The notes: generated by a model not told the origin, from the sequence alone. Counted from the first letter of the stretch, positions 20,627 through 22,720 are shown. The stretch: DNA of 22,941 nucleotides from Candidatus Parcubacteria bacterium (GCA_002869265.1 PKTH01000019.1:1-22941); one strand, 5' to 3'. Program-made: numbers and translations.

Positions 20627-20726
20627 GGTGATAATTTATCACCGGGGAAGAGGAATTTAACCCTCTTCCCTCTCTTATAAAGATTATTTGTAAAAACAGT
20701 CTTTTAGGAGAAATGTTCTTTAAATA
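20627..20726 (+). promoter_or_regulatory. Conserved intergenic module, copy 1 (two hairpins plus the CCTCTCTTATAAAGATTATTT and TTTTAGGAGAA...GTTCTTTAAA motifs)
   Basis: Hairpins GGTGATAA-TT-TATCACC and GGGGAAGAGG-AATTTAA-CCCTCTTCCC lie directly after the upstream stop codon. The rest aligns with copies 2-4. Confidence 0.55.
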
Positions 20727-20752
20727 TAAAACTTAAACAAAGGAGAAATATC

Positions 20753-20935
20753 ATGAAAAAGTTTATTATTTCAGCTATGTTCTGTATTCTTCCCATTACT
20801 ACCATTATTGGTTGGTATCTAATGTGTGGAGGTGATCACGCTTTACTCGGTCTTCGTATAATGTTGTACGGAGCGCTCCCCAGCGGAGTGGCAGTAGTTC
20901 TGAATAACCCTGAAGTTTTTAGAAAAAGGAGGTAG
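20753..20935 (+). CDS. Small hydrophobic protein (60 aa)
   Basis: AAAGGAG ribosome-binding site. MKKFIISAMFCILPITTIIGWYLMCGG... has two hydrophobic segments. Confidence 0.5.
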   Translation: MKKFIISAMFCILPITTIIGWYLMCGGDHALLGLRIMLYGALPSGVAVVLNNPEVFRKRR

Positions 20936-20939
20936 TTTT

Positions 20940-21027
20940 GGTAAGAGGGTGACGAAGGGAATTCTCTTACCTCTCTTATAAAGATTATTTATATTAAATA
21001 GTTTTTTAGGGGAAGAGTTCTTTAAAT
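20940..21027 (+). promoter_or_regulatory. Conserved intergenic module, copy 2
   Basis: GGTAAGAG-(16-nt loop GGTGACGAAGGGAATT)-CTCTTACC hairpin, then TCTCTTATAAAGATTATTT, then AGTTTTTTAGGGGAAGAGTTCTTTAAA. Confidence 0.55.
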
Positions 21028-21229
21028 GTTTTTTGTCTTCTGTTTATAGTTCATACGGTGAATTATAAACAGGGGGAAAGGGTTATGTCCTCTATATGGC
21101 TGTCGATCACTATGATAGTGAGTGAGAAATTAAAGAACTGACAGCAAACACTGTGCCACAACATAGTGTAACCATGGGAGTTAACAGACCCCAGTAAAAG
21201 TTAGGTTTGTGGCCTAACATCTGTTGTAA

Positions 21230-21315
21230 GGTAAGAGAGTGACATAAGGTACTCTCTTACCTCTCTTATAGAGAATACTAATAGTTAGTAGTTTCTTTGG
21301 AGAAGTTCTTTAAAA
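21230..21315 (+). promoter_or_regulatory. Conserved intergenic module, copy 3
   Basis: GGTAAGAGAG-(loop TGACATAAGGTA)-CTCTCTTACC hairpin, then TCTCTTATAGAGAATACT, then AGTTTCTTTGGAGAAGTTCTTTAAAA. It is preceded by another hairpin, GTTAGG-TTTGTGG-CCTAAC, at 21200-21218. Confidence 0.55.
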
Positions 21316-21329
21316 CTTATGGAGGGGTT

Positions 21330-21521
21330 ATGAATATAATTATTTCAACATCATCGCTTTCAATTCAAGAAGGTATTGATAATCTAGATTCATTTGTTGA
21401 GTCTGTGAAATTATCAAATCCTCAATCTGACTTTTCAGAAAAAATAGTTAGGGGATCATTTTTCTCCGATGCTGTTTTTAAGTCAGATAGAGGAACCTTT
21501 CTACTAATCAGAAGAATCTAA
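21330..21521 (+). CDS. Small hypothetical protein (63 aa)
   Basis: GGAGGGG ribosome-binding site 6 nt before the MNIIISTSS ATG, so the track's 21297 start is rejected. Confidence 0.4.
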   Translation: MNIIISTSSLSIQEGIDNLDSFVESVKLSNPQSDFSEKIVRGSFFSDAVFKSDRGTFLLIRRI

Positions 21522-21536
21522 CCCAATGGAGGTAAT

Positions 21537-21959
21537 ATGAAAAAAGTAATTTTGGTTGTAGAGGACAAGGAAGAAGAACAGATTTTGGCCAGGAAGGCAG
21601 TTGCAGATTCTGGCCATGGGATTATTCTTTGTGCAAATCTATTTGATGCAAAGAGTATGATTGGTTCATATTCAAGCAAGCTGTCAGGGATTGTAGCTGA
21701 TCTTCATTTTCCAGAAAGGAGTCAAGACACAAATCTTAATAAACCGGCTGGTCTTGCCATTCTAACTTTAGCCGTTAGTGAGAATATTCCTGTGGTAGTT
21801 TGTTCTGATATGGATAATCATCAATCTGATTATGTGAAAGATGTTATTCGGTATTTAGGAAAGCATACCAGCTATGGAGGTATTCCATTTAGCGTCGACA
21901 GAAAAGATTGGCTACAATCAGTAAAACAACTCAATGCCATAATGGCGAAAGGAGAATAA
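21537..21959 (+). CDS. Stand-alone CheY-like receiver (REC) domain protein, atypical
   Basis: KKVILVVEDKEEE (beta-1 acidic pocket as E/D), GIVADLHFPE (phospho-acceptor Asp position), VVVCSD (Thr/Ser position), YLGKHT (Lys position). GGAGG ribosome-binding site. Confidence 0.5.
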   Translation: MKKVILVVEDKEEEQILARKAVADSGHGIILCANLFDAKSMIGSYSSKLSGIVADLHFPERSQDTNLNKPAGLAILTLAVSENIPVVVCSDMDNHQSDYVKDVIRYLGKHTSYGGIPFSVDRKDWLQSVKQLNAIMAKGE

Positions 21960-21960
21960 A

Positions 21961-22272
21961 ATGCGAAAAATGTTGATAATTTCTGATAGTGTCTTTGGCA
22001 AGGTCTTGGCGGCGATTATTGAGAAGGATGGTTTTGATGTAATCTTATCTAGCCATGAAGACTCGGTATTCGCAGTCGCTTCAGAAAATCCCTCTCACAT
22101 TTTTATATGTGAATGTGGTAAATGTGAAGCTGGAGAAAAGACACCAATTAATATTGGCATGTCAGTTTCCGGTCAAACTATTTATCGTTGTGGATTTTCA
22201 GATGACAACGGAGGCGATTATCTTAAACTACCCCTTAATCTGGACAATCTTAAGTCCAAGATAAAAAAATAA
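21961..22272 (+). CDS. Degenerate receiver-like (pseudo-REC) domain protein
   Basis: MLIISDSVFGKVL ... HIFICECG has the REC beta-alpha pattern, but the phospho-acceptor Asp is replaced (ICE). AAGGAG ribosome-binding site. Translationally coupled to the preceding REC gene (1-nt gap). Confidence 0.4.
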   Translation: MRKMLIISDSVFGKVLAAIIEKDGFDVILSSHEDSVFAVASENPSHIFICECGKCEAGEKTPINIGMSVSGQTIYRCGFSDDNGGDYLKLPLNLDNLKSKIKK

Positions 22273-22357
22273 GGCAAGAGAGATGCAAAGTCATTTTTCT
22301 TGCCTCTCTTGTAAAGATTATTTTTTAAAATAGTTTTTTAGGAGAAGTTCTTTAAAT
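22273..22357 (+). promoter_or_regulatory. Conserved intergenic module, copy 4
   Basis: GGCAAGAGA-(loop GATGCAAAGTCATT)-TTTCTTGCC hairpin starting 1 nt after the stop codon, then TCTCTTGTAAAGATTATTTT, then AGTTTTTTAGGAGAAGTTCTTTAAAT. Confidence 0.55.
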
Positions 22358-22378
22358 AACACACACAGCGAGGATGCC

Positions 22379-22720
22379 ATGACAAAAGACAATTTAAAAA
22401 AAGTAGTAGAAAAATCAAAGAAAATGATTGCCAATGGTGAGTATAGAGACCCTGGATTTGAAAAGCTAGCTAGGGCGGTTGTCGAGTTGGTTGAGGGTTC
22501 GGACTTCGGAGAAAAAAACTCTGAAGCAACATTGACTCTGGAATCCTCTGCCAGCAACTGGGTTGAAGAAACATTGGATGATTCTTTTGACGGGGTTTGT
22601 GTTCAATTGCTAGAAATATCATCTGATTGTTTAGGTGATTTTGGAACACTATTTGTTGTTCCATATTCTAGTGGATTGTCAAAAAAATCAGCAATGATTA
22701 GATTCAAGGTTTGTGAGTAG
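22379..22720 (+). CDS. Acidic hypothetical protein (113 aa)
   Basis: GAGGA ribosome-binding site. No recognisable domain. Confidence 0.5.
   Translation: MTKDNLKKVVEKSKKMIANGEYRDPGFEKLARAVVELVEGSDFGEKNSEATLTLESSASNWVEETLDDSFDGVCVQLLEISSDCLGDFGTLFVVPYSSGLSKKSAMIRFKVCE

Follow-up and report, generated by a model that had tools for sequence, protein, structure and literature searches.

The DNA analysed here, called the window below, is an entire contig of a Candidatus Parcubacteria metagenome-assembled genome (GCA_002869265.1, PKTH01000019.1:1-22941; 22,941 nt). The repeats at four of its gene junctions represent an RNA element of two hairpins, hitherto undescribed, which lies between small genes of one long operon of this uncultured bacterium. 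The element is a selected structure of the sense strand, confined to the intercistronic spaces of long operons and placed shortly before start codons. Our preferred reading, with a rough probability of 0.45, is that it may act post-transcriptionally as intercistronic RNA "punctuation".

A preliminary description of this DNA had reported one module at each of the four junctions, and same-strand copies were recovered there by repeat finding, by alignment and with covariance models. Repeat finding places the family (D1) at approximately 20639-20714, 20940-21015, 21230-21305 and 22273-22348. The four-copy alignment has 52 invariant columns, including CTCTCTT and GTTCTTTAAA, the latter unchanged in all four copies. 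At ≤1 mismatch, CCTCTCTTATAAAGATTATTT occurs three times (0.00 expected in shuffles), the third copy being more diverged, and TTAGGAGAAGTTCTTTAAA occurs twice (0.06 expected). Two covariance models, R1 and R2, whose construction is given below, find no further copy in the other 21 kb of the window.

Each module consists of a first hairpin (H1), a second hairpin (H2) that follows without a linker, and a single-stranded GTTCTTTAAA trailer. Positions are counted on the window.

20627-20643, plus strand: extra hairpin (H0) of copy 1, ahead of H1, GGTGATAA-ATT-TATCACC (fold).
20645-20728, plus strand: module copy 1, with H1 at 20645-20670, H2 at 20671-20711 and GTTCTTTAAA at 20715-20724 (fold z = -5.75; R1 76.8 bits, R2 72.9 bits).
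20940-21030, plus strand: module copy 2, with H1 at 20940-20971, H2 at 20972-21013 and GTTCTTTAAA at 21017-21026 (fold; R1 96.7 bits; also R2).
21230-21318, plus strand: module copy 3, with H1 at 21230-21261, H2 at 21262-21303 and GTTCTTTAAA at 21305-21314 (fold; R1 93.4 bits; also R2).
22273-22360, plus strand: module copy 4, with H1 at 22273-22304 (its first base directly after the stop codon), H2 at 22305-22345 and GTTCTTTAAA at 22347-22356 (fold; R1 88.9 bits; also R2).

RNA folding gives two adjoining hairpins in all four copies (z = -3.2 to -5.75). H1 has 9-13 bp, with GG(Y)AAG...CTT(R)CC at its base and a top that varies; its arms are GGTAAGAGAG...CTCTCTTACC, and the third pair is T:A, C:G or G:C depending on the copy. 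H2 starts with the base directly after H1 and has ~19 pairs (18-19) and one bulged base, its pyrimidine-rich 5′ arm UCUCUUAUAAAG being paired with a purine-rich, Shine-Dalgarno-like 3′ arm UUUUAGGAGA. Then come a short single-stranded trailer, often GUUCUUUAAA, an A/U-rich spacer and the next ribosome-binding site (RBS), so placed that the Shine-Dalgarno sequence of the next gene is outside the H1-H2 structure. The preliminary description had seen a hairpin followed by two independent motifs. The hairpin is H1, but in the folds the two strings pair with each other to make H2, the first string as its 5′ arm and the first half of the second as its 3′ arm, and the only single-stranded part of the conserved strings is GTTCTTTAAA. 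Its placing of the hairpin 1-5 nt after the upstream stop codon agrees with copy 2 (a gap of 4 nt), with copy 4 (0 nt) and, when measured to the extra hairpin, with copy 1 (2 nt), but not with copy 3, which begins 88 nt past a putative open reading frame (ORF) of 18 amino acids (aa), behind a conserved noncoding stretch.

Three additions to this architecture were tried and rejected. A stem closing H1 and H2 into a three-way junction with the trailer would need complementary sequence ahead of H1, where none is seen; for a triplex formed with the trailer the strand polarity is wrong, given such a short linker; and a mini-ORF starting from AGGAGA in H2 is present only in copy 1 and in two related loci (L005, L014), the other copies having none.

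Related loci were all retrieved through the gene of a 140-aa receiver protein encoded in the array, as contigs of NCBI homologues plus 44 metagenome loci (51 sources in total, numbered with L). The receiver homologues are 25-46% identical, and short intergenic repeats occur in most of the retrieved loci. Two short contigs, with receivers 85% (L004) and 78% (L005) identical, carry modules at the same junctions as the window: the orthologue of copy 3 is at L004 145-235 (81.6% identical), and those of copy 4 are at L004 1200-1266 and L005 1014-1103. Compensatory changes separate these close orthologues at the H2 apex (ATTATTT/AAATAGT to ATTATTA/TAATAAT) and at the H1 base (GGCAAGAG/TCTTGCC to GGCAAGGG/CCCTTGCC). 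Identity between orthologues is 71-82% for the modules, 62-77% for the third codon positions of neighbouring genes and 60-68% for the 63-aa gene. The last module of L005 has a degenerate trailer and is followed by a terminator and a tRNA-His gene, with no 113-aa gene; its retention with no gene behind it would suit an element that serves the 3′ end of the preceding cistron.

Covariation was measured on three alignments. Among seven close sequences 93.8% of cells pair, versus 48-61% with the 3′ partner slid; eight pairs change on both sides and one U·G pair is invariant. Model R1, built from seven close copies, gave 45 matches at E < 0.002 in 316 kb, and R2 was rebuilt from the 36 best. In these 36 copies 94.7% of cells pair, versus 68% when shuffled and 45-56% when slid, with double changes in 30 of the 31 pairs. 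Because this alignment had been fitted to the model, an independent check was made with MAFFT and RNAalifold on 16 unfitted copies from 15 loci; it recovered the whole of H2 and the base of H1, and 18 of 21 pairs were compensatory. G·U or U·G fills 205 paired cells and A·C or C·A only 58 (3.5 to 1), an excess which argues that the hairpins fold on the sense strand. The loops of both hairpins vary freely in length and sequence, and the stem bases at the H1/H2 junction are conserved in sequence, with the bulged base kept across loci.

A covariance-model search of relatives, as the preliminary description had proposed, greatly enlarges the family: R2 finds 73 copies at E ≤ 0.01 in 31 of the 51 sources, with up to nine copies per array (L022; six in L028 and L036), and 72 of the 73 have the same strand as the receiver gene. 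R2 has no match in 250 kb of control DNA that was chosen for containing 18-mer seeds, and neither model has one in the array flanks of the 12-kb loci. The exact pattern CTCTCTTRTARAGA-N15-45-GTTCTTTAAA has no match in metagenomes and one in genomes, in an unrelated member of the Hyphomicrobiales. Two 18-mer scans of viral contigs gave 35 single matches, and none of the 36 loci from the pattern scans scores with R2. The family consensus is GGCRAG...CTYGCC for H1, (U/A)CUCUUUAUAAAG...CUUUUAGAGA with a bulged base for H2, and often UUGUUCUUUNAA for the trailer. Of 71 trailers, 22 contain GTTCYY, compared with 0.76% of background windows. Three distant GC-rich loci (L006, L009, L010) retain the H1-H2 architecture in almost unrelated sequence, and L009 has AAGTTCTTTAAAT ahead of one start codon.

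Some of these relatives have additional elements beside the dumbbell formed by H1 and H2. In L006, at 7900-7925 and 9303-9322, a strong Shine-Dalgarno sequence and a mini-ORF of five codons (MFNTS, MSGSL) come ahead of each dumbbell, and the stop codon of the mini-ORF overlaps the first bases of H1. L009 has repeated, hairpin-rich segments of 90-120 nt between dumbbell and start codon (2519-2626 and 6258-6366; 4364-4482, 5465-5581 and 6916-6997), which end in GCTCAAAGTTC(T/C), and more than 1 kb of noncoding DNA after two promoters at 1440 and 1814. Conserved segments similar to these upstream ones of L009 are found in L018/L024, L025/L028 and L035/L036.

The earlier statement that the module is of no known family agrees with Rfam. 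At the gathering score Rfam 15 has no match in the window and only two tRNAs (L005) in L004-L007; at E values up to 5, positions 20000-22941 give only spurious matches of ~18 bits, where the gathering scores are 42-102. A riboswitch or ribozyme was rejected, as the alignments show no conserved unpaired core. A full-text search of the literature returned no description of the element, and a 2026 preprint on intergenic features has no mention of it. The element is a new family within the cis-acting structured mRNA elements, unusual for its dumbbell architecture and for recurring ahead of nearly every cistron.

The distribution of the copies bears on whether they are selfish or neutral repeats with no locus-specific role, of the kind of repetitive extragenic palindromic (REP) sequences, bacterial interspersed mosaic elements (BIMEs) or miniature inverted-repeat transposable elements (MITEs). 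Like REP/BIME, BOX and Correia repeats, the modules are short, palindromic, intergenic and multi-copy, and would be co-transcribed and able to affect mRNA stability. Those repeats are genome-wide and in both orientations, whereas the modules are restricted to one operon type, to one orientation (72 to 1) and to a set position before start codons, at a steady distance of mostly 10-50 nt. Orthologous junctions keep them with compensatory changes, and neither the other 21 kb of the window nor the flanks of the arrays hold any. Genome-wide spread, which the preliminary description had set against its own claim, was not seen in the DNA examined (window, related loci and 250 kb of control), and we consider a selfish or neutral repeat extremely improbable.

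The array that holds the four copies appears, from its sequence, to be a single transcript unit from the promoter at 20106 to a hairpin near 22900. Its ORFs are as the preliminary description had them. Its parts and the divergent neighbouring gene are the following.

19221-19994, minus strand: gene of a TrmB-family regulator, divergent from the array (Pfam TrmB, 1.1e-9).
20106-20134, plus strand: sole strong sigma-70 promoter of the array, TTGACA-17-TATAGT with TG, 11/12 matches (promoter scans).
20142-20171, plus strand: leader of the first gene, a hairpin CAAGTT-AAGAAC-AACTTG and then TCGATCTTTAAA, without H1-H2 (sequence; repeat families D7 and D19).
20199-20624, plus strand: first cistron, 141 aa, without a family match (ORF calling, Pfam).
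20753-20935, plus strand: gene of a 60-aa hydrophobic protein (ORF calling).
21086-21229, plus strand: putative 18-aa ORF (21086-21142) and a conserved noncoding, RNA-like stretch with three hairpins (21142-21229; L004 alignment).
21330-21521, plus strand: gene of a 63-aa protein (orthologues 56% identical in L004 and 50% in L005).
21537-21959, plus strand: orphan single-domain receiver with a CheY fold, 140 aa (AlphaFold, Foldseek, family alignment).
21961-22272, plus strand: 103-aa partner protein, possibly a degenerate receiver (synteny; weak PDB profile matches).
22379-22720, plus strand: last cistron, 113 aa, missing from the orthologous L005, with a homologue after a module in L022 (BLASTP, locus comparison).
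22891-22920, no strand assigned: hairpin closing the array, G+C-rich and flanked by runs of A and T, a probable bidirectional terminator (the scan flags the minus strand only, and the plus-strand terminator is a probable one).

BLASTP finds no similarity among the proteins downstream of the four modules, and what is conserved is accordingly the cis element rather than a set of duplicated genes, as was first described. Strong promoters in the array region are found only at 20093/20106. The claim that the first gene has a sigma-70 promoter in place of the module holds, the site at 20106-20134 being near consensus and H1-H2 being absent there. The same applies across loci: promoter scans give about one strong sigma-70 promoter per array, upstream of a first gene that has no H1-H2, and the modules lie between the later cistrons, mostly 10-50 nt before the start. 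On the other side, H1 begins either 0-30 or 90-290 nt after the upstream stop codon, a bimodal distribution in which the long gaps hold other conserved, hairpin-rich sequence. The neighbouring regulator named at the outset is a TrmB protein by its Pfam match, and TrmB is by far the commonest neighbour family of the arrays (16 of 88 large ORFs in 16 related loci). Among the genes that come directly after a module, the receiver gene is the most frequent (17 other loci). Also recurrent in the arrays are a basic protein of 43-47 aa, a zinc-ribbon protein, an M54-type peptidase and the 113-aa protein.

The stretch at 21142-21229 has its counterpart in L004 1-144, where the three hairpins show compensatory changes and the loops CCRCAA and AGUUARCAGA are retained. 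The pairs concerned are CACTGTG..CATAGTG versus GTCATGA..TCATGAC; GGGAGTTAACAGACCC; and GTTAGG..CCTAAC versus GTCAG..CTGAT. The last of the three hairpins (21200-21218) is terminator-like, and a weak promoter-like site is found ahead of the stretch at 21021-21050. The stretch may be a small RNA gene or a piece of a longer leader rather than a spacer.

The preliminary description had offered two interpretations of the modules, regulon promoters like those of pheromone or bacteriocin loci and a family of cis-regulatory leader RNAs. The promoters are not supported: the modules contain no credible -35/-10 pair (none at a spacing of 16-18 bp), the strings covary as pairs, and there is about one promoter per array. 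The leader RNAs survive in outline, in that the element is of the sense strand, conserved in structure and placed shortly before start codons. The element, with dozens of related copies in similar operons, is most likely an mRNA signal. Two other promoter signals were tried and rejected: a sigma-54-like GG-N10-GC in H1 fits copy 4 only, and GTTCTTTAAAT can be read as an archaeal B recognition element and TATA box (BRE/TATA), on contigs that carry canonical bacterial sigma-70 promoters.

A broader DNA-level reading would make each junction a terminator plus a regulon promoter and operator, for which TrmB, the receiver proteins or an alternative sigma factor would be the reader. No neighbour of the arrays is as common as TrmB, the sequence of H2 forms a long palindrome, and in a distant relative, L007, the junctions do have this form: a terminator, TTGACA and a perfect palindrome, AATAGCAC-N6-GTGCTATT, over the -10 region, in two full copies and one partial (686-790, 1795-1899, 2584-2624). 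Two solutions are thus found side by side in the same operon family. A binding palindrome would leave unexplained the covariation through ~19 bp, including the variable centre, and the 3.5-fold excess of G·U, and no module holds a -35/-10 pair. In addition, a hairpin-plus-TCTTTAAA leader lies, by position, downstream of the -10 hexamers of two sigma-70 promoters, which locates the TCTTTAAA trailer motif in the RNA and not in the promoter. We regard a DNA-level function as very improbable.

The two promoters with this leader are 18 kb apart in the window (2291-2369 and 20106-20198). They share one leader design, a small hairpin, (GA)TCTTTAAA, ~20 nt, AAAGGAG and ATG; in the second instance the hairpin leader is at 2321-2341, after the promoter at 2291. 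The gene that follows there (2370-2693) encodes a cysteine-rich protein of 107 aa and may share a regulon with the array. A different palindrome, TGTCAAT-N4-ATTGACA, overlaps the -35 of strong TrmB-adjacent promoters in L006 (6797-6819, 6936-6958) and L009 (1418-1445, 1800-1820) and is a candidate TrmB operator.

Termination at the junctions was considered next to promotion, with the modules as conditional intrinsic terminators (attenuators) in which H1 or H2 with a U-rich run would be relieved by an antitermination factor. The base of H1 is G+C-rich and followed by UCUCUUAU, and 26 of 71 copies have a T-rich trailer (at least 6 T in 10) such as UUUGUUCUUUU after H2. Twelve of the 71 trailers are A-rich, however, and many others are not U-rich; in the GC-rich relatives L006 and L009 neither hairpin is followed by a U run; the same contigs carry canonical terminators whose T runs are clear; and a terminator scan leaves the modules unflagged on the plus strand. 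H2 would also form too late to affect termination at H1. The module was rejected as a general intrinsic terminator on these grounds, and attenuation at it is improbable.

The layout of the array recalls integron attC arrays, in which single-stranded DNA sites recombine and the small genes between them are mobile cassettes. Structured, strand-specifically folding repeats come right after the stop codons of small, unrelated, promoterless genes on one strand, with a single promoter upstream; the 113-aa gene of the window is missing at a module boundary in L005; and one unitig, L008 (1139 bases), closes on itself by a 30-base overlap into a unit of 1109 bp, equal to the spacing of the L007 junction repeats that flank the receiver pair (L007 686-1875). 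Those L007 repeats are of the promoter/operator type and not H1-H2, and a self-closing unitig is the expected artefact of flanking repeats: the simplest account of the closure is that direct repeats produced it in the assembly graph, an excised circle being possible. As to the modules themselves, they have two side-by-side hairpins where attC has one R''-L''/L'-R' hairpin, and no R''/R' core sites, their ends (GG(Y)AAG... and ...GTTCTTTAAA) mismatching RYYYAAC / GTTRRRY. Tyrosine recombinases (Phage_integrase) are only 2 of the 88 large neighbouring ORFs in the 16 related loci, the window has none, and gene order is conserved between relatives such as L021 and L022. We therefore rejected the attC site and strongly doubt that the modules are recombination sites.

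One further locus may be circular. L013 is a 3.7-kb contig with identical 98-base ends (1-98, 3637-3734) that encodes the receiver pair, a 421-aa ORF guessed from sequence to be transposase-like and a small helix-turn-helix-like ORF; it has no R2 match at E ≤ 0.01.

The receiver itself (PLX21543.1 of the same metagenome-assembled genome) has no Pfam match, the Response_reg model giving no score. Its AlphaFold model has a mean predicted local distance difference test score (pLDDT) of 93, and the top PDB matches in Foldseek, with probability 1.0, are Spo0F, MicA, PhoP and CheY-type receivers. E9, D55, S90 and K123 are invariant and D10 nearly so in 24 homologues, giving the protein all that defines a receiver: the (beta-alpha)5 fold, the acidic pair, the phospho-acceptor Asp, the Ser/Thr and the Lys. 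It had been described as a degenerate, receiver-only CheY-like protein. The CheY-type receiver is borne out by the fold matches, but with its key residues invariant the protein is not obviously degenerate, and in the model it looks like a functional receiver without an output domain. The gene of the 103-aa partner always comes directly after the receiver gene in related loci. For the name pseudo-receiver that it had been given there is a hint from profile matches against the PDB, weak (E = 0.016-1) and nearly all to receiver domains; hhalign against the receiver family gives a probability of 2.9% and the single-sequence AlphaFold model has a pLDDT of 43, which leaves the protein a possible degenerate receiver.

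The receiver pair invites a second reading at the RNA level, in which the module is a regulated leader bound by a protein of the locus, so that one signal, perhaps received by the pair, switches translation or read-through of all cistrons. The sequence of the H1/H2 stem bases and the bulged base are conserved across loci, a module is directly upstream of the receiver gene in 17 other loci, and other arrays encode small Arg/Lys-rich and zinc-ribbon proteins that could bind RNA. ANTAR targets are a precedent of a kind; they have short stems, hexanucleotide loops with A at position 1 and G at position 4, and a second stem that overlaps a terminator. For EutV in the eut locus of Enterococcus faecalis, a two-hairpin RNA motif is reported at several intergenic sites (PMC3369931), and the logic would be like that of these multiple EutV/ANTAR sites: as with the targets of EutV, AmiR and NasR, a two-hairpin motif is repeated within a cluster that encodes a receiver-domain protein. 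The modules differ from ANTAR targets in their long stems, their variable loops, the lack of general terminators and a receiver that is a bare fold; with no ANTAR domain in any array protein according to Pfam, the ANTAR target was rejected. Nor do the array proteins of the window have any RNA-binding domain in Pfam; the receiver has no output domain, the loops are unconserved and the downstream Shine-Dalgarno sequence is not sequestered. A switch by alternative pairing, with the H2 3′ arm in a hairpin with the trailer or with an anti-Shine-Dalgarno trailer, looked suggestive in L028 and L012 but was rejected as a general feature (duplex energy -3.05 kcal/mol when matched versus -2.78 when mismatched, permutation p = 0.13). 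We consider a regulated leader a close rival of the punctuation reading, but the less likely of the two and in itself rather unlikely.

A more specific proposal is that the dumbbell is the RNA target of a new two-component output, the receiver and its degenerate partner, with or without a small basic or zinc-ribbon protein, binding the H1/H2 junction; in a variant of it the dumbbell is excised as a stable, possibly circular, small RNA that acts in trans. We think this distinctly unlikely. If true, the processing or translation of every cistron would be switched at once, by an RNA-directed response-regulator system that has no ANTAR domain and is specific to bacteria of the candidate phyla radiation.

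In the punctuation reading that we prefer, an endonuclease would cut in or beside the dumbbell, either RNase III in the long helix or an enzyme of the RNase E/Y type in the AU-rich trailer. The hairpins would cap the new RNA ends after cutting, and stability and rate of translation would then be set separately for each small cistron. In addition, a locus-encoded factor may dock at the conserved stem bases and bulge. The small 5′ hairpin of the first cistron fits a need of every cistron for a structured 5′ end. A stem of ~20 bp or longer between cistrons, as in an RNase III site, is present in H2, with its 18-19 pairs and bulge abutting H1, and it is possible that the two hairpins stack into a helix of ~30 bp.

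The nearest analogue is the early mRNA of phage T7, a unit with a single promoter cluster and a single terminator whose cistrons are separated by conserved RNase III hairpins (R0.3, R0.5, R1, R1.1 and R1.3); after cleavage these hairpins stay at the RNA ends and stabilise the messages. By analogy, the array has one promoter region, a probable terminator and mutually similar, irregular sense-strand hairpins of about 20 bp or longer between cistrons. Unlike the T7 sites, with which they share no sequence similarity, the modules have two hairpins that abut without a linker and a conserved single-stranded trailer; they belong to a cellular operon of Parcubacteria and not to a phage, and cleavage in them is only inferred. 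Firmicutes have 5′ mRNA stabilisers in the form of 5′-terminal stem-loops, STAB-SD and polypurine stabilisers. Like these, the module is a structured element with a Shine-Dalgarno-like purine run upstream of the real RBS and could, by analogy, protect against 5′-to-3′ decay; unlike them, it has the purine run base-paired inside H2, is internal to the operon and is repeated before nearly every cistron.

Several points weigh against punctuation. The H2 helix (18-19 bp) is slightly short for a classical RNase III substrate unless stacked on H1. Strong conservation of the stem bases, together with the conserved bulge, points to a specific binding protein more than to a generic nuclease. With its bimodal gap between stop codon and H1, the module is linked more closely to the gene after it than would be expected of a pure 3′ stabiliser. 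A weak promoter-like TTTAAA-18-TATAGT (9/12) follows copy 2 at 21021-21050; it is the only such site that touches a module and is unshared by the other copies. The association with the receiver is partly by construction, because all loci were found through the receiver gene. Finally, we infer cleavage, the RNA ends and co-transcription alike from sequence.

Two further features of the window lie outside the array. An ORF of 289-302 aa without a Pfam match (18464-19372, opposite strand) overlaps the 3′ end of the TrmB gene by ~150 nt; it partly resembles, by eye only, a radical-SAM-like protein after a module in L047 and may be a gene remnant. A copper-handling cluster at 9192-13521 (a P-type ATPase, an HMA-domain protein and a CsoR-type repressor), with a cupredoxin-like protein at 16269-16712, is an ordinary feature that has nothing to do with the modules.

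Bacteria of the candidate phyla radiation are uncultured, and to our knowledge almost nothing is known of their post-transcriptional gene control. Comparative evidence for the modules as a new RNA motif is strong: there are 73 copies, spread over 31 loci, with extensive covariation, and the motif is outside Rfam. The distribution is unusual, in a single conserved type of operon where a TrmB regulator accompanies an orphan receiver and many uncharacterised small proteins. Such operons can be located with the covariance model, and the modules are amenable to nuclease or binding assays in vitro. If they are processing sites, they would be a cellular counterpart of the mRNA punctuation of phage T7; if they are protein-binding switches, they would offer a new route from a receiver domain to RNA.

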